From NCBI GenBank assembly GCA_043803205.1, contig JAZDKG010000073.1, positions 2,129 through 66,128 of the forward strand: 64,000 nt of DNA, read 5' to 3'. The notes under the pieces were generated by a model. The model saw nothing but the letters and a program-made list of their open reading frames with translations, ran no database searches and was not told the DNA's origin. This DNA is from Planctomycetota bacterium (lineage in GTDB: Bacteria > Planctomycetota > DG-23 > JAZDKG01). Positions 6,918 through 42,053 of this stretch are shown here, piece by piece. A program made the position numbers and the translations under genes. Numbering within the stretch: position 1 is the stretch's first letter; each line of letters begins with the position of its first letter.

Positions 6918-6994
6918 GAGCCCAGGACGGAGCCGCGCCCGCCGTTTACGGTGAACCGTGCGGCGGCCCCGGCGACGGCGGAGGAGGACGGGTC

Positions 6995-7867
6995 ATTTCC
7001 GACCGGGACACGATTCAGACCTATCTCCGGGAGATCAACCGGATTCCCCTCCTGAGCGCACAGGAGGAGAAGGAGCTGGCGCACCGTGTGCGGGAGGGGG
7101 ACCACGGGGCGCGCGAGCAGATGATCCAGGCGAACCTCCGCCTCGTGGTGAACATCGCCAAGGGCTACGCGCGCCGGGGGATGCCGCTGGGGGACCTCAT
7201 CGAAGAGGGGAACGTCGGGTTGCTGCGTGCGGTGCAGGGGTTCGATCCGGGGCAGGGGTTCCGGTTCTCGACCTACGCGTCCTGGTGGATCAAGCAGGCG
7301 ATCCGGCGGGCGCTCGTGTCCAAGGTGAAGACGATCCGGATCCCGGCGTACATGTCGGAGATGATCGGACGATGGCGCGCGGCGACGACGGAGCTCACCG
7401 ACCGGCTGGGGCGGGCGCCGATGGAGCGGGAAGTGGCGGAGGCGATGGAGGTGACGCCGGCGAAGCTCCGGCTCATCGTGATGGCGGCGAACTCGTTCGC
7501 GTCGGCGGACCAGCCGCTGGCGCACGATCAGTCGCTCACGATCGCCGACGTGCTGGCGGACGAGAGCATCAAGGCGCCCGAGCAGGAAGTCGCGGACAGC
7601 CTCGAGGTGGAGGGCCTGAAGGGGCTGCTGGAGCGCCTGTCGAAGCGCGAGGGGGACGTGCTCGTGATGCGCTACGGCCTCTTCGGGTGCGAGCCGATGA
7701 CGCTCAAGCAGATCGGGGAGAGGGTCAGCCTAACGCGCGAACGGGTGCGCCAGATCGAGAATCAGGCGCTGCGCAGGCTCTATGCGATGATGACGGACGA
7801 GGGGGAGCCGAAGGAGGAGAAGAAGCCGAAGAGGAAGGCGAAGGGGAAGAAGCGACGGGAGGCGTAA
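6995..7867 (+). CDS. Sigma-70 family RNA polymerase sigma factor (RpoD/RpoS-like, short form); start codon unresolved
   Basis: Regions 1.2, 2, 3 and 4 are recognisable: TIQTYLREINRIPLLSAQEE, ANLRLVVNIAKGY, GFRFSTYASWWIKQAI, LKQIGERVSLTRERVRQIENQALRRL. There is no ATG, GTG or TTG in frame between the upstream stop (6869-6871) and the conserved region 1.2 at ~7001. An ATT at 6995 is preceded by GGAGGA with a 6-nt spacer. Confidence 0.75.
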   Translation: MSDRDTIQTYLREINRIPLLSAQEEKELAHRVREGDHGAREQMIQANLRLVVNIAKGYARRGMPLGDLIEEGNVGLLRAVQGFDPGQGFRFSTYASWWIKQAIRRALVSKVKTIRIPAYMSEMIGRWRAATTELTDRLGRAPMEREVAEAMEVTPAKLRLIVMAANSFASADQPLAHDQSLTIADVLADESIKAPEQEVADSLEVEGLKGLLERLSKREGDVLVMRYGLFGCEPMTLKQIGERVSLTRERVRQIENQALRRLYAMMTDEGEPKEEKKPKRKAKGKKRREA

Positions 7868-7871
7868 GACG

Positions 7872-7942
7872 CCCCTTCGTCCCGCAGTCGCGGGATCGGC
7901 GCAGGCCCTTCGACGAGGCTCAGGGCAGGCGCTTCGGGCGGG
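7872..7942. repeat. Intergenic copy of a short hairpin-containing repeat family
   Basis: ccccttcgtcccgcagtcgcgggatcggcgcaggcccttcgacgaggctcagggcagg resembles the coding repeats at 1385-1477 and 1607-1639 and the gtcccgcagtcgcgggac hairpin inside the MITE-like element at 19437-19454. Confidence 0.6.
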
Positions 7943-7969
7943 AAAGATGGGAAGGAAAGGAGGGAGGCG

Positions 7970-8530
7970 ATGAAGAAGGTCGGCGGGCCCGCGGGTGCGG
8001 GCGGAGTCGAAAGGCTCAAGGCGCTCATCCGGGACGTGCCGGATTTCCCGAAGAAGGGGATCCTGTTCAAGGACATTACGCCTCTGGTGGGCGATCCGGA
8101 GGCGCTGCGGCGAACGGTGGAGCTTCTTGCGGAGCCGTACCGAAAAGCGGGCGTGACGGCGGTCGCCGCCGTGGAGAGCCGCGGGTTCATCTTCGGCGCG
8201 CCCGTGGCCCTGGCGCTGGGGGCGCGCTTTGTGCCGTTCCGCAAGCCGGGGAAGCTCCCCTGGCGCACGGAGCGGGCGACGTATTCCCTCGAGTACGGGA
8301 CGGACGCGGTAGAGGTGCACACGGACGCCTTCCGGAAGGGGGAGCGGGTGCTCCTCGTGGACGACCTTCTTGCGACGGGGGGGACGATGGCCGCGTGCGC
8401 GGAGTTGGTCGAGAAGCTCGGCGCGACGGTGGCGGGATGCAGCTTCGTGATCGAGCTCTCGTTTCTCAAGGGGCGGGCGAAGCTCTCGCGCCACAAGGTG
8501 AGCGCGCTCATCGACTATCCGGGGGAGTGA
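7970..8530 (+). CDS. apt: Adenine phosphoribosyltransferase
   Basis: IRDVPDFPKKGILFKDITPL, VESRGFIFGAPVA and VLLVDDLLATGGT PRPP-binding motifs. Strong RBS aggaggga. Confidence 0.9.
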   Translation: MKKVGGPAGAGGVERLKALIRDVPDFPKKGILFKDITPLVGDPEALRRTVELLAEPYRKAGVTAVAAVESRGFIFGAPVALALGARFVPFRKPGKLPWRTERATYSLEYGTDAVEVHTDAFRKGERVLLVDDLLATGGTMAACAELVEKLGATVAGCSFVIELSFLKGRAKLSRHKVSALIDYPGE

Positions 8531-8556
8531 GGGGGGACGACGGCGCGGACAGCCGT

Positions 8557-8578
8557 CGGGGGGAAACGAAGCCCCCCG
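8557..8578 (+). terminator. GC-rich hairpin downstream of apt (possible terminator, no U-tract)
   Basis: cgggggg-aaacgaag-ccccccg, a 7-bp perfect stem 27 nt after the apt stop. A second stem lies just upstream (cgacgg..ccgtcg). Confidence 0.3.
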
Positions 8579-8870
8579 CGGGGATTCGCCACACTGGCGC
8601 GTTTTGAGGGGGGAGGAGGAGCGGGGGCTCCCGCCTACTTACGATGCCGGACCCGCTGCATCTGACGGCGCTTTTTGCTCCCGCGCTTTCTGCGTCCGCG
8701 ATGCTTCTTGAGCGTCCGAACTCCCACGCAGTGATTCCTTTCCGCCAAGGGGTGGGGTGCGCTGCTGGCGGGACACTATAGCGCATAGCGGGCGCAAGTC
8801 AACGGTGAGTTGACCAACGAAGGCGAAGACGCTATCGTACCGGGCTTCCTCGAAGGAAGGGAGACGCTAG

Positions 8871-9884
8871 ATGCACAAGACGGTCGCTCTCGGTTTCATC
8901 GGGATTGGCGGGGCGGGGTCGCATCACGTGACGGCGGCGGCGCAGACCGCCGGCGCGCGGGTCGCGGCGCTGTGCGACCTCGACGCGCAGAAGCTTGCGC
9001 GGATCGCGGGGTCTCATCGCTCGGCGGCGACGTTCACGGACCCGGCGAAGCTCTTGGCGATGGAGGAGCTGGACGGCGTGGTGGTGGCGCTCCCGAACGC
9101 GCTGCATGCGCCGATGGTCACCGATGCCCTGCGGGCGGGGAAAAACGTCCTGTGCGAGAAGCCGCCCGCGCTCAACGGGGACCTCGCCGCCAAGATGGAG
9201 CGGGAGGCGGCGCGGGCGAAGAAGCTGCTCGTCTACGGATTTCAGCGGCGGTTCTACCCGTCGAGCCGGCACGCGAGTCGTATGCTTTCGCGCGGCGAGG
9301 CGGGAGAAGTCTATTTCGTCAAGACGGGATGGCTGCGCAGGGACGTGGAGCTTCCGGCGTGGTTTCTCAAGAAGAAGCTCTCGGGGGGCGGGCCGCTGAT
9401 CGACCTCGGCGTACACATGCTGGACGTGACGCTGTGGCTCATGGGGTATCCGAAGGCGGTCGCCGTGCTGAGTACGGTGGAAAGGAAGTTCGGGACGTAC
9501 GACGTGGAGGATTTCGCGGCGGCCATGATCCGGTTGGGGAACGGGGCGACGCTGTTTCTCGAGGCGTCGCGGAAGGTGCACGGCAACATTCCGAGGGGTG
9601 GAGATCAGGCGTACTGGAACGTGCTGGGGTCCAGGGCGGGGCTGAGCTGGCCGCCTCTTGCCGTGCATCGGGACCGGCGGGGGAAACCCGTGGACCTGGC
9701 GCCGGCTCTTGCGGCGGACGACTGGATCGCAGGCATCGGGGCGCAGATGAAAGAGTTCGTGAGGAGGATCCGGGGGGGAGACACGGACCTTACGCAGGCG
9801 CGACAGGGGACGCAGCTCATGCGGATCGTCGACGCGATCTACGAGTCGGCGCGCAGGAAGACGGCGGTGAAGCCGGCGGGGTAG
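8871..9884 (+). CDS. Gfo/Idh/MocA family NAD(P)-dependent oxidoreductase
   Basis: N-terminal Rossmann fold (LGFIGIGGAGSHHV), LCEKP motif and the C-terminal alpha/beta domain typical of the family. Confidence 0.85.
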   Translation: MHKTVALGFIGIGGAGSHHVTAAAQTAGARVAALCDLDAQKLARIAGSHRSAATFTDPAKLLAMEELDGVVVALPNALHAPMVTDALRAGKNVLCEKPPALNGDLAAKMEREAARAKKLLVYGFQRRFYPSSRHASRMLSRGEAGEVYFVKTGWLRRDVELPAWFLKKKLSGGGPLIDLGVHMLDVTLWLMGYPKAVAVLSTVERKFGTYDVEDFAAAMIRLGNGATLFLEASRKVHGNIPRGGDQAYWNVLGSRAGLSWPPLAVHRDRRGKPVDLAPALAADDWIAGIGAQMKEFVRRIRGGDTDLTQARQGTQLMRIVDAIYESARRKTAVKPAG

Positions 9885-9896
9885 CGGGAAACCGGG

Positions 9897-9925
9897 TTGA
9901 CTGCCTGCCGCCGGGCGCGTATAGT
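9897..9925 (+). promoter_or_regulatory. Near-consensus sigma-70-type promoter TTGACT-N17-TATAGT
   Basis: ttgact 9897-9902 and tatagt 9920-9925 with exactly 17 nt between them. Located 40 nt upstream of the micro-ORF at 9966. Confidence 0.55.
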
Positions 9926-9965
9926 ATTGAGTAGACGAGATTGACGATGAGTAAGGGGAGAGACA

Positions 9966-10025
9966 ATGTGTGACACCTGTGGGTGCCGGGACAAGAAGAA
10001 GAAGGACACGCCGAAAAAGAAGTAG
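9966..10025 (+). CDS. Micro-ORF encoding a 19-aa Cys/Lys-rich peptide (MCDTCGCRDKKKKDTPKKK)
   Basis: A strong RBS taaggggagag lies 5 nt before ATG 9966. It is driven by the consensus promoter above. It is followed by a ~190-nt leader and then the URO-D-family gene at 10220. Confidence 0.3.
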   Translation: MCDTCGCRDKKKKDTPKKK

Positions 10026-10219
10026 ATCCCGACAGGGCGCGGGAAGCCGGCCCCGGGATTTCGGGATGAGGGGACGGCGGGAGAGTTGGATGCGCGCGGG
10101 GGAGGGTTTCCTCTTGTTGAGCGGATAGCGCCGCGGGACTCAGCCGCGAGTGCTGAGCGCGCCGAGTGGCTGTCTTGCGTCGCGCCGGCAACGCGGGATC
10201 GGCGCAAGGAGAAGGTGGA

Positions 10220-11278
10220 ATGCTGACGCCGAAGGAGAGGACGCTGCGGGCGCTGCGGTTTGAGCGCCCTGACCGCCTGCCCAAGGCGGACTTCTACTGG
10301 TCCGAGTTTGAGGCCATCGCCCGAAAGAGGCGCGCGATCCCGCCGGGCGTGTCGCTCGAAGAGCACTACGCGGTGGACATGGGGCTCCTCTTCCCGGACG
10401 AGGGGCCCTACACGACCCGCGCGGGCACCGTCCGGGAGACGGACACGGAGAGGATCCGCATCACTCCCTGGGGACAGAAGGTGCGTGAAGTGAAGGGGGC
10501 GTTCTTCAGCGAGGAGCTCGAATCGCCGATCCGGGAGCAGAAGGACCTCGATCGTCAGCCGTTCGATCCCCCAATGCTCCCGTCGCGATATGAGCATTTC
10601 CTTGACCCTTCCGTGTACCATCCGGACAAGCTCTGCTACTTCGTGAAAACGGGGGGCCCATACCTGCGGAGCGCGTTCGTGCGGGGACAGACGGAATGGC
10701 TCATGGACATCGCCGGGGACGAGGGATTCGCGAAGGAGCTCGCCTGGCGGATGGGGGACTTCCTCATGCAGGTCGGACGGGAGGCATTCAAGAGGTGGGG
10801 CGACACGTCCACGGGGGTGTGGATCTTCGACGACATGGCCTCCAACCGGGGCCCGATGTTCTCGCCCGAGAGCTTTGAGAGGATCTTACTGCCGGCGTAC
10901 CGGCACATGGTGAAGAGCTGGAAGGAGGCGGGGGCGAGCTACGTGCTTCTGCACTCGGACGGGAACATCGAGGTGCTCTTAGACATGCTGATCGAGGCGG
11001 GGATCGATGGGTTCAACCCGGTGGAGCCGCGCAGCGGGATGGACCTGGCGCGGCTGCACGAGAAGTACGGGAAGCGCGCGGCGTTCATCGGGGGGATGTG
11101 CAACTCGGTGGTGCTGCCGAGGGGGCCCGTCGAGAAGGTGCGGGAGCAGGCCGAGCGGATCATCGCGGCGGGGAGGGACGGCGGGGTTATCATCGGGGCG
11201 CACTCGATCGGCCCGGACATTCCCGTCGAGCACTACGAGGCGTACGTTGAGCTCGTGAACTCGTCGCGGTACGAGTGA
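10220..11278 (+). CDS. Uroporphyrinogen decarboxylase (URO-D) family protein, MtaA/CmuA-like (paralog 1)
   Basis: Length and conserved blocks of the URO-D / methylcobamide-methyltransferase family (FDDMASNRGPMFSPESF, HSDGNIEVLLDMLIEAGIDGFNP). RBS aaggagaagg before ATG 10220. Confidence 0.8.
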   Translation: MLTPKERTLRALRFERPDRLPKADFYWSEFEAIARKRRAIPPGVSLEEHYAVDMGLLFPDEGPYTTRAGTVRETDTERIRITPWGQKVREVKGAFFSEELESPIREQKDLDRQPFDPPMLPSRYEHFLDPSVYHPDKLCYFVKTGGPYLRSAFVRGQTEWLMDIAGDEGFAKELAWRMGDFLMQVGREAFKRWGDTSTGVWIFDDMASNRGPMFSPESFERILLPAYRHMVKSWKEAGASYVLLHSDGNIEVLLDMLIEAGIDGFNPVEPRSGMDLARLHEKYGKRAAFIGGMCNSVVLPRGPVEKVREQAERIIAAGRDGGVIIGAHSIGPDIPVEHYEAYVELVNSSRYE

Positions 11279-12161
11279 GGGGGACGTCGTCAGGGAGCGA
11301 AGGCCGGTCCTCCTGCGGCACGAGGAGCGTTTCAAGGACGGCGTCGAGGAGGTCGAGGGCGCAGGCAAGGCCTTTTCCGCGCGGGGAATTCCGGAAGCGA
11401 AGGAGGCCCGCCTGGCAGCCGGGGGGCTCAAGCTCCATTGCCTGGACCCAGGCGCGGGACGGGAGAGCCGCGGTCACGCGGACGGGGATCGAGAGTTCGC
11501 CGGCGCATTGGACGAGGCGGAGCTGCAGCCGGTCGAAGAGGCCCGGGCCGCGGGGGATCTCTAGAAGGTCGACGCGGGCGCCGACGCCCTCCACGGCGAG
11601 GAGGAGGTCGGGGCGGACTCGGGCGCAGGGAAGCGCGGCACAGACGGGGGAGGTGCGCGTCCGAACGAGGAACGAGACGACGAGCGTCCCGGAGAACTCC
11701 CGGGTACGCCAGCGTTCCAGGAGGGCCTCCGCCGCGGGGACGGCCGCGCACGCGGGCACTTGTCCGGGGGCCACGGTGTCGCCGACGGCGAGCGGGATGG
11801 AGCGAGTGCCCGACGCGACGAGGAGGGAGCGACGCCTTCGGAGCTCGACGACGCAGACGCGCCCCGTGGCTCGAGAGAGGGAGCGCCCGACCTCGGCGAC
11901 GGGCGTGCGGCCGACGGTCGAGAGATGCGCTTCCCCTTGGGGCGAGATCCCGCGCACAAACCAACCGGGCTCATCCACGGGCGCGGCGACCATGATGACG
12001 GGGCTAGCGCGTCCGAGCTCGACGGTGACGTTCCCGGCGACATCGGCGCAGGGGTAGAAGCCTTTCGAGGCGAGACGGGCAAGAAGGGATCTCTGGAAAT
12101 GTTCCTCGGCGCCTGAGACCGCAGGCGGGCCAAGGGGTGTCACGTATGGTGTCCGGCGCAT
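11190..12161 (-). CDS. M42 (FrvX/TET) aminopeptidase homolog, catalytically degenerate (possible pseudoenzyme or decaying gene)
   Basis: It aligns along its whole length with M42 peptidases (PAVSGAEE...GNVTVELGRASPVIMVAAPVDEPGWFV vs APGVSGYE...GNVIA..KVMIAAHMDQIGLMV). The metal-ligand motifs are replaced: AHMDE becomes AAPVDE, and the QEEVGLRGA region becomes VRTRTSPVCAA. Strong RBS aaaggaga before ATG at 12161. The 3' end overlaps the convergent URO-D gene by ~88 nt. The composition is Arg-rich. Confidence 0.45.
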   Translation of the reverse strand: MRRTPYVTPLGPPAVSGAEEHFQRSLLARLASKGFYPCADVAGNVTVELGRASPVIMVAAPVDEPGWFVRGISPQGEAHLSTVGRTPVAEVGRSLSRATGRVCVVELRRRRSLLVASGTRSIPLAVGDTVAPGQVPACAAVPAAEALLERWRTREFSGTLVVSFLVRTRTSPVCAALPCARVRPDLLLAVEGVGARVDLLEIPRGPGLFDRLQLRLVQCAGELSIPVRVTAALPSRAWVQAMELEPPGCQAGLLRFRNSPRGKGLACALDLLDAVLETLLVPQEDRPSLPDDVPLTRTATSSRAQRTPRSARRECPGRSSAPR

Positions 12162-27345: not shown

Positions 27346-27357
27346 TGGGGAGCCCCG

Positions 27358-28350
27358 TCAGTCCGCCGGCGGCGTCTCGTCCCCGGCGTTCTCCCCGGTC
27401 GCTTCCTTTCCCCGATAGAAGCTATGGCCCACGTATCGGACCCAGGCGGTGAAGGGGTCGTCAGTCCCGCTCGCGCGGGAGAGGGCGTTGGCGGCGATCC
27501 AGTGTTTGGAGTCCGCGTCGTCGGCGTAATGGAGGAGGAGCGCCTCGCGCGTCTTCGGGGGGATGGGAGAGCCCCATTCGGGGAGCCCTTGGTGGGAGAG
27601 AACCATGTGTTCGATGAGGAGCGCGAGCTCCTGCGGGAACCCTTCGATGCGGGCGATCCGCTCCGAGACCATGCGGATGCCCAGGATGATGTGTCCCAGC
27701 ATGCCGCCGGGGACGGTGTAGTTGAACTCGCGGACGGAGTCCAGCTCCTCGACTTTTCCGATGTCGTGCAGGATCGCGCCGGTGATGAGGAGGTCGCGGT
27801 CGGCGGCGTAGTGTTCGGCGAAGAAGTCGCAGACTTCCGCGACGGAGACGACGTGCTCGAGCAAGCCGCCGATGTAGGCGTGGTGGACATCGCGGGCGGC
27901 GACGGAGCGCTTGAAGGCCTCGCGGAAGCCCGCGTCGTCGAAGAAGGCGGCCAAGAGCTTCGCCAGCCACTCGTTTTCGATGGAGCCGATGAAGGCCTCG
28001 ATGGTCTGCCAGAGCTGCGCTACGTCCCTCGGGGTGTGGGGGAGGAGGTCGGCGAGGTCGAAGGGGTCGTCATCGCGGGCCTTGCGGAGCTGCTTCACGT
28101 TGAGCTGTCGCTCGCCTTGGAAGGTCTCGACGATCCCCTGCGCCTTGACGACGTCGCCCTTGCCGAACTGGTCGTTGAGCTCCTGGGCGTTGTCCCAGAC
28201 CTTGGCGTCGATCCGGCCGGAGGCGTCCTGGAGGTCAAGGGTGAGGTAGGCCTTCCCCGCGCGCGTGAGGCTGAGGGTCTTTTCGCGCACGAGGAAAAAA
28301 TCCACGACGACCTCGCCGACGGTGAGGTCTTGGATGCAACGGGCTCGCAT
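27358..28350 (-). CDS. YhaM-like HD-domain protein (OB-fold plus HD phosphohydrolase; 3'-5' exoribonuclease family)
   Basis: N-terminal OB-fold region (GEVVVDFFLVREKTLSLTRAGKAYLTLDLQDASGRIDAKVWD). HD motif (HVVSVAEV...ILHDIGK). The start was chosen at the MRARCIQDL ATG. The longer track ORF adds an implausible N-terminal extension. Confidence 0.7.
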   Translation of the reverse strand: MRARCIQDLTVGEVVVDFFLVREKTLSLTRAGKAYLTLDLQDASGRIDAKVWDNAQELNDQFGKGDVVKAQGIVETFQGERQLNVKQLRKARDDDPFDLADLLPHTPRDVAQLWQTIEAFIGSIENEWLAKLLAAFFDDAGFREAFKRSVAARDVHHAYIGGLLEHVVSVAEVCDFFAEHYAADRDLLITGAILHDIGKVEELDSVREFNYTVPGGMLGHIILGIRMVSERIARIEGFPQELALLIEHMVLSHQGLPEWGSPIPPKTREALLLHYADDADSKHWIAANALSRASGTDDPFTAWVRYVGHSFYRGKEATGENAGDETPPAD

Positions 28351-28498
28351 GATCACCTCGCTTCCGGGAAAGGGCAGGAGCTTCGCCGATCTTTCGACCG
28401 GGACCATTTTAGCCGGGGACGACTCGGGCGCAATCGCGGCTTCTCGCCGGCGGGCGAATCTGTACAATAGGATCCTCTTTGCGTTGGAGGATCGCGCG

Positions 28499-29557
28499 AT
28501 GCCGAAGGAGAGCATGACGGCGAGGGAGCGATGGGAAGCGGTGCTGGATCGGCGCAAGCCGGACCGTGTGCCAATGGACTACTGGGCTACGCCCGAGGCC
28601 GACGAGAAGCTGATGAGGCACCTCCGGGTGAACACGATCGAGGAGGCGCACGCCAAGCTTCACATCGATAGGCCCCTCACGGTGTCTCCGCGGTACGTCG
28701 GTCCGCCCCGTCCGCCGGGGACGAACCAGTGGGGGTGTCGGGTGCGACGGGTCCGTTACGAGACGGGGGTCTACGAGGAGATCGTCTCTCATCCGCTGGC
28801 GTCCTGCTCGTCGATCGAGGAGATCGACGCGAACTACCGGTGGCCGTCGACGGACTGGTACGACTACTCCCACCTCGCGGAGGAGATCCGGGGGCAGGAG
28901 CACCGTCCGGTCCAGGCCGGGGGGTCGGAGCCGTTTCTTGTCTACTGCGAGTTGCGGGGCCTGGAGCTGGGGATGATGGACCTGGTGACGGTGCCCGAGA
29001 TCGTCCGCCACTGCCTCGGAAAGCTCTTCGACTTCGCCTATGAGAACACTCGCCGGATCTATGAGGCGATCCCCGGGAGGGTGCTCATCTCGTACGTCGC
29101 GGAGGACATGGGGTCGCAGACGGACCTCCTTTTCTCGCCCGAGGCGATTCGTACCTTCTTCCTTCCCGGGATGAAGCGGATGAACGAGCTGGCGCATTCC
29201 GCGGGGGCGCGCGTCTTCTATCACAGCGACGGGGCGGTCCGGAAGATCGTGCCCGACATGATCGCGATCGGGATCGACGTCCTCAATCCCGTCCAGTGGC
29301 GCTGCGAAGGGATGGAGCGCCAGGCCCTCAAACGCGACTTCGGGGACAAGGTCATCTTCCACGGCGGCGTCGATAATCAGCACACGATCCCGTTCGGCAC
29401 GCAGGACGAGGTGCGCCGCGAGGTGCGAGAGAACATCCGAATCCTCGGCGCGGGGGGCGGATACATCCTCGCCCCGTGCCACAATATTCAGGCCGTCGGC
29501 CCCGCCGAGAACGTCGTCGCGATGTACGAAGAGGGGTACGCCTGCGGATGGACCTGA
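28499..29557 (+). CDS. Uroporphyrinogen decarboxylase (URO-D) family protein, MtaA-like (paralog 2)
   Basis: URO-D family blocks (YVAEDMGSQTDLLFSPEAIRTFFLPGMKRM, HSDGAVRKIVPDMIAIGIDVLNPVQ). RBS ggagg 7 nt before ATG 28499. Confidence 0.8.
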   Translation: MPKESMTARERWEAVLDRRKPDRVPMDYWATPEADEKLMRHLRVNTIEEAHAKLHIDRPLTVSPRYVGPPRPPGTNQWGCRVRRVRYETGVYEEIVSHPLASCSSIEEIDANYRWPSTDWYDYSHLAEEIRGQEHRPVQAGGSEPFLVYCELRGLELGMMDLVTVPEIVRHCLGKLFDFAYENTRRIYEAIPGRVLISYVAEDMGSQTDLLFSPEAIRTFFLPGMKRMNELAHSAGARVFYHSDGAVRKIVPDMIAIGIDVLNPVQWRCEGMERQALKRDFGDKVIFHGGVDNQHTIPFGTQDEVRREVRENIRILGAGGGYILAPCHNIQAVGPAENVVAMYEEGYACGWT

Positions 29558-40743: not shown

Positions 40744-40925
40744 AGGACGCTCCTTCCCGTTTCCGCGTGCGCACGCATTATAGACGAGGGCCTTCCGGCG
40801 CACAAGGAAGGGCGCCGGTGCGCCCGGGGCTTGGGCGCGGGACCGCAGACCTTGACGGCAGCGGCGCCCGTGGGCCAAAATGCCGTGCCGCACGGGCAAC
40901 GTCGTATCTGGGGAAAGGAACGATC

Positions 40926-42053
40926 TTGACTGCGAAGCAGCGCATTTTAGCGGCGCTCCGGTCGGCTGTGCCCGACGCGGTCCCGGTCACGCTCGGGACG
41001 AGCGAGATGGTGCCCGTCAGGAAGTCGGGCCTCGATTACATTCAGTTCTTCTGGCGCGAGAAGCGCAGCCTCGTGCGGGCCCGCTGCGACACGGAGAAAG
41101 GCTTCGGAGGGGACGTGTTTCTGCATTCGGGCCCCGGCCCGTCCGCGGGCGATCCGGAGGTGACCACCGAAACGCTGAAGGACACGCTCGAAGAGGTCAT
41201 CTACCGGGAGACGATCCACACGCGCAGGGGGGGGCTCTCGAGCGTGCTGCGGATCACGCCCACGGAGTCGATCGCGACGCTTGAGGGCGCGGTGAAGGAC
41301 GCGACGGCCGACCGGGAGAAGGTCCTCGATCTCCTAGCCGATCCCGAGGGCAAGGACTACTCGGACTACGTCTCCGACCACGCGTACGTCGGGGACGCGG
41401 GGCACTGCGGGCTGTGGCTCTCGACCCCGATCGACTGGTGGTCGGGGTTGCGCGGGAGCCCCGAGAAGGCGATCTACGATCTTGCGGACCACCCGGAACT
41501 CATGAAGGACCTCTTCGCCGCATACACGAGGTACGCCGCCGCGCTCATCGCCGATTTCCTCGCGCGTTACCGGGCGATCGCAGACTCGATCGGTCTGGGA
41601 GGAAGCACGACGTCCATGTCGGTTATCTCGCCGGCGCTGCTTCGCGAGCACGCGGTCGGTTTCGTGCGGGCGATCAAGGGGGAGGCGGCGCGCTGCGGCG
41701 TCCCGGTCCAGTACCACATGTGCGGACGCTCACGGGAGGCGATCCCGATCCTCGTGGAGGCCGGGGTGGACGGCATGGACGCCCTCGAATGCCCCCCGAC
41801 GGGGAACGTGGACCTCGCCGAGGTGAAGAGGCTTTTCGGATCGCGCATCTCGCTGCGGGGGAACGTGAACTCGATCACGGTGATGCTGCGCGGGTCGCCC
41901 CGCGACGTCGAGCGGGACGTCCTGCGCTGCATGGAGGCCGCCAAGAAGGGGGGAGGGTATGTCCTGGGAGTGGGGGACCAGGCGCCGTACCATACCCCCG
42001 ATGAGAACCTCGCCGCATTCGTGGAAGCCGGTCGGAGATACGGGAAGTACTAG
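40926..42053 (+). CDS. Uroporphyrinogen decarboxylase (URO-D) family protein (paralog 3)
   Basis: URO-D family C-terminal blocks (HMCGRSREAIPILVEAGVDGMDALE, GGGYVLGVGDQAPYHTP). A TTG start at 40926 follows ggaaagga. The track ORF from 40767 adds an Arg/Gly-rich artefactual N-terminus. Confidence 0.7.
   Translation: MTAKQRILAALRSAVPDAVPVTLGTSEMVPVRKSGLDYIQFFWREKRSLVRARCDTEKGFGGDVFLHSGPGPSAGDPEVTTETLKDTLEEVIYRETIHTRRGGLSSVLRITPTESIATLEGAVKDATADREKVLDLLADPEGKDYSDYVSDHAYVGDAGHCGLWLSTPIDWWSGLRGSPEKAIYDLADHPELMKDLFAAYTRYAAALIADFLARYRAIADSIGLGGSTTSMSVISPALLREHAVGFVRAIKGEAARCGVPVQYHMCGRSREAIPILVEAGVDGMDALECPPTGNVDLAEVKRLFGSRISLRGNVNSITVMLRGSPRDVERDVLRCMEAAKKGGGYVLGVGDQAPYHTPDENLAAFVEAGRRYGKY

Follow-up and report, generated by a model that had tools for sequence, protein, structure and literature searches.

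A promoter and micro-ORF module ahead of a URO-D-family gene in a Planctomycetota genome and its counterparts in related lineages

The DNA considered here is a 64,000-nucleotide (nt) stretch of a Planctomycetota bacterium (assembly GCA_043803205.1, contig JAZDKG010000073.1, positions 2,129 to 66,128; referred to below as the window), in which a URO-D-family gene is preceded by a near-consensus promoter and a 19-codon micro-open reading frame (micro-ORF) encoding a Cys- and Lys-rich peptide. An earlier, sequence-only reading had drawn attention to a promoter of the form TTGACT-N17-TATAGT, to a strong ribosome-binding site (RBS) in front of an ATG at 9966, and to a stretch of 194 nt between the micro-ORF and the gene, all of which are present as described (Table 1). 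The promoter, the Shine-Dalgarno (SD) sequence and the micro-ORF are real, and the interpretation as a whole is supported in part. Comparison with related lineages suggests that the features recurring at the same chromosomal position are the initiation region and a short in-register Gly-Cys core, and not the Cys/Lys-rich peptide. The promoter matches the sigma-70 consensus at 10 of 12 positions and is among five such sites out of 14 promoter-like sites in the 64 kb; the exact pair of hexamers occurs twice in the window, compared to 0.00 expected from shuffled sequences. The 5' untranslated region (5' UTR) of the micro-ORF would be ~34 nt long and bears the SD sequence, and both the SD sequence and the ATG are unpaired in the predicted folds. 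The Cys residues of the encoded peptide occupy positions 2, 5 and 7 and are not consecutive.

The gene beyond the spacer matches Pfam URO-D with an E-value of 4.6e-16 (59 bits against a cut-off of 23.9), and its product is 100% identical to NCBI entry MFH0963397.1, from a Planctomycetota metagenome-assembled genome. It had been described as MtaA-like. The superfamily assignment holds at the level of Pfam URO-D, whereas the subfamily models score far under their cut-offs (58 bits against 235 for NCBIfam MtaA/CmuA TIGR01463; 38 against 400 for MtaA_Meth), so that the label is to be taken at the superfamily level only. Two further URO-D-family paralogs are found in the window, at 28265-29557 and 40767-42053, making three with the gene at 10220-11278; a gap of ~920 nt without a called ORF (27346-28264) lies 5' of the paralog at 28265-29557. 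Among the 44 annotated ORFs of the window, there are no hyp, hydrogenase, nickel or cysteine-metabolism genes.

The contexts of related loci were obtained from protein searches and contig look-ups. Scans with the URO-D protein against species-representative genomes and JGI contigs returned matches of <=47% identity, together with two partial ones of 54-59%; the matches belong mostly to other phyla and lack the unit described below, and neither collection yielded a close relative. A common gene order, S1 - sigma70 - adenine phosphoribosyltransferase (APT) - (small basic ORF, minus strand) - (GFO oxidoreductase) - X - URO-D, is found in the window and in the loci L001, L005/L006, L058 and L061. 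The flanking proteins of these loci are 53-71% identical to those of the window; inside the L001 clade their identities are 77-97%, and 86-97% for URO-D and APT. A nearer APT protein, P0122 (88% identical), comes from a contig of 1.5 kb. At position X in L001, L005/6 and L058, a promoter TTGACA-N17-TATATT or TATGCT (11/12 and 10/12 consensus matches) is followed by a 5' UTR of ~55 nt, a G-rich SD sequence and a 10-codon ORF. About 12 nt past the stop codon of this ORF stands hairpin 1, a GC stem of 7-8 bp with a T-rich tail, and beyond it lie another hairpin, the block AGAAAGCGACTGACATTTCGG, which is invariant, and a long terminator carrying eight T's. A third lineage, L060, in which GFO is 55% identical to that of the window and 64% to that of L001, has a unit of the same architecture directly after GFO; the next gene there encodes a GntR/LacI-type regulator and not URO-D. 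In L061, a member of the L001 clade, the promoter and the ORF are absent and only the 3' block and the terminator are kept. As read from these sequences, the relatives' unit is a self-contained transcript of ~230 nt, bounded by a promoter and a terminator. Considering its own terminators, the other downstream gene in L060 and the deletion in L061, the unit is not tied to URO-D and is dispensable.

The micro-ORFs of these loci can be aligned in register with that of the window. Their peptides are MGKKCGCKDP in L005, MGKKCGCTDS in L058, MDNRRGCTDL in L001 and MDRVRGC in L060, to be set beside MCDTCGCRD followed by KKKKDTPKKK in the window. Nucleotides common to all lineages are the ATG and YGT GGR TGC at codons 5-7, with GAC or GAA at codon 9; at the residue level, Gly6 and Cys7 are kept and Asp9 mostly so. 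Cys7 (UGC) is found in all, Cys5 in three of the five (window, L005 and L058) and Cys2 in the window only. A G-rich SD sequence and an ATG at a fixed distance of 12 nt from the core are present in every lineage that carries the unit, despite differing flanks. A search pattern based solely on the relatives' sequences, ATG-N9-(Cys/Arg codon)-GGN-TGY, found only the six true copies in ~300 kb of other loci (8883 ATGs), and in the window (1320 ATGs) it found the ATG at 9966 and one out-of-frame site inside the S1 gene. With a background of ~1e-4 per ATG and only four ATGs in the 335 nt of intergenic DNA, a match in register would arise by accident with a probability of ~1e-3, with the promoter and the SD sequence not yet counted. 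We conclude from this comparison of sequences that the micro-ORF module is homologous across the window, the L001-clade and the L060 lineages, and the micro-ORF is probably functional and translated.

The same recurrence bears on whether the ORF could be a chance feature, with no function of its own, in the 5' UTR of a URO-D operon that is strongly transcribed. The ORF is short and its composition derives partly from an A-run, the DNA profile of the relatives misses it, and one close relative (L061) has lost the module, all of which would agree with a chance origin. However, diverged lineages have the in-register motif, the SD sequence and a strong promoter at the syntenic site, against the low background per ATG given above, and we consider a chance ORF very improbable. 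The third codon positions are G or C in 15 of 18 codons by hand count, like the window genes, which is weak evidence in the same direction.

Outside the module, the intergenic DNA of the window has little in common with that of the relatives. Blastn of the window against the relatives' unit gave nothing beyond the 13-15-nt core, the nhmmer profiles A5 and A6 of the unit had no match at 9890-10220, and the 21-mer conserved among the relatives does not occur in the window. The AGAAAGCGACUGACAUUUCGG block had no match in the window at <=3 mismatches, and hairpin 1 with its T-run and the long terminator were also not found. The micro-ORF module is the only intergenic part surviving at this divergence. 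It is noted that the MAFFT alignment placed the L060 hairpin one column off, and that the comparison amounts to about three independent sequences.

Table 1. Positions of the promoter, micro-ORF and downstream features in the window.
Feature	Position	Strand	Basis or remark
-35 hexamer TTGACT	9897..9902	+	Sequence; part of the 10/12 sigma-70 consensus promoter
-10 hexamer TATAGT, 17-nt spacer	9920..9925	+	Sequence
Transcription start	~9930-9933	+	Inferred from spacing only
SD sequence AAGGGGAGAG, GGAG 5 nt 5' of the ATG	9953..9962	+	Sequence
Micro-ORF of 19 codons, MCDTCGCRDKKKKDTPKKK	ATG 9966 to TAG 10023-10025	+	Sequence; in register with L001, L005, L058 and L060
Conserved core, codons 5-9, TGT GGG TGC CGG GAC	9978..9992	+	Sole stretch in common with the relatives (YGT GGR TGC NNN GAC/GAA)
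Lys-rich tail KKKKDTPKKK	9993..10022	+	Private to the window genome; in no relative
Spacer of 194 nt, G-rich	10026..10219	+	No terminator, Rfam family or likeness to the relatives' RNA body
Small hairpin TCCCG-N8-CGGGA right after the stop codon	10027..10044	+	Terminator-like on the minus strand only (with the preceding A-run)
Imperfect inverted repeat, 16-nt arms, 75% complementary	10174..10208	+	3' end forms the first bases of the URO-D SD sequence
SD sequence AAGGAG of the URO-D-family gene	10206..10211	+	Sequence
URO-D-family gene	10220..11278	+	Pfam URO-D; likely first long cistron of the transcript
260-aa ORF, 4-nt overlap with the URO-D stop	11275..12057	+	No family match; probably same operon

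Compared to its initiation region, the product of the micro-ORF is poorly kept. The ORF is about 6, 10 or 19 codons long in the different lineages, the Cys count ranges from 1 to 3, and the Lys tail is confined to the window. L001 and L005, whose flanking proteins are 86-87% identical, share only 4 of 10 peptide residues; nucleotide identity over the ORF is 67%, versus 68% at the third codon positions of APT, while the segment from hairpin 1 to the core is 85% identical. The variation in length and Cys count, the window-only tail and this neutral rate of divergence indicate that the Cys/Lys-rich peptide is not under selection. Conservation of the peptide in related genomes, which the sequence-only reading had proposed to examine, thus largely fails, the ORF changing at the rate of synonymous sites, and holds only for Gly6, Cys7 and Asp9. 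The persisting parts, as seen in the aligned sequences, are initiation (SD sequence and ATG), the register and the Gly-Cys core.

The peptide had also been proposed to bind metal. The window peptide has the arrangement M-C2-x-x-C5-G-C7 at its extreme N-terminus, exactly the positions of the HypB site, and NCBIfam HypB_prefix_1 is its only family match (E=0.005, positions 1-16), although the score of 18.2 bits is below the 30-bit cut-off. A Cys at position 2 permits Met excision. The candidate metal-binding peptide, CDTCGCRDKKKKDTPKKK, would then have 18 residues, CDTCGCRD-KKKKDTPKKK, and with the strong promoter and RBS it could be made in quantity and bind Ni(II)/Zn(II) in the manner of the HypB CxxCGC motif. 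In HypB, the high-affinity site is formed by the N-terminal amine with Cys2, Cys5 and Cys7 and reaches picomolar affinity, and short peptide maquettes bind metal (PMC12284835). By this analogy a functional micropeptide may be envisaged, but we consider it quite improbable. Cys2 is missing from the orthologous micro-ORFs of L005 and L058, and both Cys2 and Cys5 from those of L001 and L060; the L060 product has only about 6 residues, and the peptide evolves neutrally, at the synonymous-site rate. There is also no hyp, hydrogenase or nickel gene in the 64 kb and no G-domain remnant downstream. The HypB-like motif is probably a fortuitous, lineage-private feature. A hypB pseudogene remnant was considered as its source and rejected, as the relatives' in-register ORFs do not have the motif and neither a G-domain remnant nor a hyp context is found. 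There is a very slim chance that a drifted leader micro-ORF has gained, in this lineage, a complete HypB-type site and a polylysine tail and now gives, from a promoter that ranks among the strongest in the window, a free 18-residue Ni/Zn-binding or metal-buffering peptide. If true, few gene-encoded molecules of metallochaperone-like type would be as small, and a regulatory ORF would have given rise to a functional micropeptide.

Several observations concern the window-private tail itself. G-AAA-AAG at 10013-10019 is a dnaX-like slippery run with AAGGA before it and the hairpin at 10027-10044 starting 7 nt after it; a -1 shift at this run would skip the TAG at 10023 and add EVDPDRAREAGPGISG, with translation ending at 10069. 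The A-run and hairpin of the window (10009-10040) also resemble the reverse complement of the relatives' hairpin 1 and T-run (CGCCGAAAAAGAAG in the window vs CACCGAAAAAGAAG in inverted L001). A local inversion as the origin of the Lys tail was tried and set aside, the shuffle tests being marginal (3/300, 12/300 and 44/300) or not significant.

With the peptide drifting neutrally, the conserved core could be explained by a function in RNA rather than in protein. The element would then be a non-coding RNA (a small RNA, sRNA, or a 5' UTR) in which GUGGRUGC makes an RNA contact, either as a seed or by intramolecular pairing, and the ORF would be incidental, or its translation would have no effect. 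In four of four relatives, the core finds its best duplex partner in the hairpin 1 loop (GCAYCC), and one position covaries: GGAUGC:GCAUCC in L001 and L058, GGGUGC:GCAUCC with a G.U pair in L005, and GGGUGC:GCACCC in L060. The alternation of Arg and Cys at codon 5 is a C/U transition opposite G, which is radical for a peptide and conservative for pairing. The L001 clade moreover conserves the 3' body, from hairpin 1 to the core, better than any other part (84-96% identity). On the other hand, a strong SD sequence and an ATG stand at a fixed 12 nt from the core in every lineage, the core:loop duplexes are not individually significant against shuffles, and hairpin 1 forms anyway in the relatives' minimum-free-energy structures, with pair probabilities of 0.82-1.0. 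With zero nt between the loop element and the 3' arm, a simultaneous pseudoknot would be sterically unlikely. In the window, the core has no partner, and no Rfam family is matched. A purely RNA-based element seems to us unlikely, while still the strongest of the alternatives weighed here. An antiterminator in the relatives was rejected, since the core:loop duplex is not individually significant and masking the ORF does not keep hairpin 1 from forming.

The 3' part of the relatives' unit deserves mention in its own right. The AGAAAGCGACUGACAUUUCGG block and the long U-tailed terminator are near-invariant in the L001 clade (L001:4597-4680; L005:4726-4809; L061:2350-2425), and both are kept in L061 despite the lost promoter and micro-ORF. 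The block is a candidate sRNA or 3'-UTR-derived RNA without an Rfam match; Rfam found nothing at E<=1 in the five relatives' loci. A local hyper-divergence was noted between L005 and L058, where the intergenic DNA is otherwise 88-100% identical and the third codon positions of APT are 94% identical: identity is only 65% in the 5' UTR of the unit (L005:4580-4619) and 82% over the promoter.

A leader-peptide attenuator had been suggested for the window, and the leader RNA was examined accordingly. The absence of a riboswitch signature, as had been remarked, agrees with Rfam, which gave no match in 9700-10400 at E<=10 and none window-wide at gathering scores. The predicted fold of RNA 9932-10235 is not better than that of shuffled sequence (z=-0.81). 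A scan of 10026-10219 found no terminator-like site on the plus strand, the fold contains no hairpin with a U-run, and no terminator or antiterminator hairpin of the kind that the sequence-only reading proposed to look for was detected in the leader. No second promoter-like site was found by scanning between the micro-ORF and the URO-D gene. A translating ribosome was mimicked by keeping one of three parts single-stranded: the start codon with the Cys codons, the Lys tail with the stop codon, or the entire ORF. The unpaired probability of the URO-D SD sequence was 0.53-0.60 with the micro-ORF masked, versus 0.63 when free, which does not amount to an RBS switch, and the inverted repeat at 10174..10208 had no effect on the predicted accessibility of this SD sequence. 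Without a terminator, a special fold or an RBS switch, there is no structural basis for transcriptional or translational attenuation in the window, and with the independence of the unit in the relatives, the attenuator proposal is not borne out.

A further possibility is a Cys-responsive stalling leader, modelled on amino-acid leader peptides and the mycobacterial polycysteine short ORFs, in which a ribosome pause at Cys codons (three of the first seven) under Cys-tRNA scarcity would alter expression of the downstream operon. The invariant Cys7 (UGC) and the presence of Cys5 in three of five lineages would suit such a mechanism, as would the position of the stop codon in L001 and L005, ~12 nt before a terminator-like hairpin and T-run in the classical attenuator geometry. 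There is also precedent, in that Cys-codon short ORF (sORF) attenuators have been described in mycobacteria (bioRxiv 10.1101/834739). However, the window has neither a terminator nor an RBS-sequestering switch, only one Cys codon is present in two of the lineages, and in the relatives no alternative antiterminator is predicted to win out and a second strong terminator follows. The downstream genes, URO-D-like or, in L060, a GntR/LacI-type regulator, are not of cysteine metabolism, and no such gene is found in the whole window. Cys-responsive stalling would be quite improbable.

The account that we tentatively favour, at a little under even confidence, is that a strong constitutive promoter drives a translated leader mini-cistron and, in this genome, would read through into the URO-D-like operon. 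The window would hold one copy of a lineage-specific module, in which a strong sigma-70-type promoter is followed by an SD sequence and a translated micro-ORF, at the same chromosomal position as in the relatives, and the terminator-bearing 3' part of the ancestral unit appears to be missing. As a consequence of this loss, RNA polymerase starting from ~9932 would run through the unstructured 194-nt spacer into the URO-D-like operon, and transcription may continue from the URO-D-like gene into the overlapping 260-aa ORF. The micro-ORF would open the mRNA as a short leader cistron with efficient translation, in what may amount to promoter capture. Selection could act on initiation and on the ribosome's transit of the Gly-Cys core, or else on an RNA contact by the core, and not on the Cys/Lys-rich product. 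The most probable effect would be strong transcription and a ribosome-loaded 5' end for the downstream genes, with no evidence of sensing. Upstream of URO-D, the relatives have a conserved block (TAATTGTAAATTGTAAACCCGACCCT ... GATAGTGTGCCG; L001:4880-4960, L005:4870-4950, L061:2515-2590) that is probably the gene's own promoter and operator; this block is absent from the window, where the scan found no recognisable promoter belonging to URO-D itself.

Some points count against a translated, read-through mini-cistron. The transcription start, the translation and the read-through are all inferred, and the comparison covers only three independent lineages (window, L001 clade and L060). The DNA profile of the relatives' unit misses the window copy, so that homology rests on synteny and the short in-register motif. 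If the core were kept for RNA pairing, its retention in the window would be unexplained, as it has no detectable partner there; and a model without sensing gives no reason why Gly6-Cys7 in particular should persist.

Small ORFs and sRNAs are, to our knowledge, almost unstudied in Planctomycetota. The module would be a lineage-specific case, not described before, of a familiar type of element, either a short leader ORF or an sRNA with a small ORF, and if translated and functional it would add an unannotated lineage-specific micro-ORF element to this phylum. It also suggests how a strong promoter with its mini-cistron can be put to different uses, giving a separate short transcript in some genomes and forming the start of an operon in another. 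A caution follows for the reading of such sequences: the eye-catching Cys/Lys-rich peptide is the part that is not conserved, and even the exact HypB-like motif may be coincidental. Current knowledge is not overturned; the locus is of value mainly for its conservation in register across deeply diverged lineages and for its exact HypB-like site.

Two further features lie near the module. A second copy of TTGACT-TATAGT, with an N16 spacer, is found on the minus strand at 8802..8775 and drives a very basic 30-aa ORF with a GTG start (VGVRTLKKHRGRRKRGSKKRRQMQRVRHRK, 8727..8635, minus strand). In L005, L059 and L061, 27-29 of its 30 residues are identical, and each of these ORFs has its own TTGACT-N16-TATACT promoter. 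No match was found in Pfam, NCBIfam, PDB, a library of 1.84 billion proteins or an exact-sequence look-up. It is probably an unannotated small protein, and perhaps a ribosome-associated one. The listed 549-aa ORF at 6958-8607 (+) is an artefact of GC-rich sequence, and its translation is of low complexity, with much Arg, Gly and Ala. This ORF overlaps the genuine sigma-70 gene (7088-7867) as well as that for adenine phosphoribosyltransferase (7970-8530).

We have compared the module with regulatory leaders, metal sites and small RNAs of known function. Like the trpL/hisL/pheL-type attenuators, it has a short SD-led ORF right after a promoter and 5' of a gene, and in the relatives the ORF stops ~12 nt before a GC-rich hairpin and T-run and is partly complementary to the hairpin. 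Unlike in those systems, a terminator is lacking in the window, the ORF contains no run of regulatory codons, the predictions favour no antiterminator, and the downstream genes are outside amino-acid pathways and differ between lineages. With the mycobacterial polycysteine sORF attenuators (Canestrari et al., bioRxiv 10.1101/834739), it has in common a micro-ORF with Cys codons as the first cistron of an operon. Those sORFs are leaderless and have consecutive Cys codons, and sensing by ribosome pausing has been proposed for them (bioRxiv 10.1101/834739), whereas the window ORF is SD-led, has the ~34-nt 5' UTR and carries separated Cys codons. Neither a duplex masking the downstream RBS and relieved by the ribosome nor Cys-metabolism genes downstream were found here.

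The likeness to the HypB CxxCGC Ni(II) site is limited to the start of the window peptide, MCDTCGC, where M-C-x-x-C-G-C is identical at positions 1-7. The micro-ORF stops after 19 codons, without a GTPase domain or a hyp/hydrogenase context, and the three-Cys pattern is not kept in its orthologues. Dual-function sRNAs with a small ORF, such as SgrS/SgrT, RNAIII/delta-haemolysin and SR1/SR1P, resemble the relatives' unit, a terminated RNA of ~230 nt with its own promoter, a conserved structured 3' body and a 5'-proximal short SD-led ORF. They differ from it in that the ORFs here are much shorter (6-19 aa), and from the window copy in that the latter lacks the 3' body and terminator. The closest counterpart remains the relatives' own micro-ORF unit. 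While the window is without hairpin 1 and its T-run, the AGAAAGCGACUGACAUUUCGG block and the long terminator, it shares with that unit the syntenic position, the orientation, a strong promoter, the SD sequence and the in-register spacing from the ATG to YGTGGRTGC.

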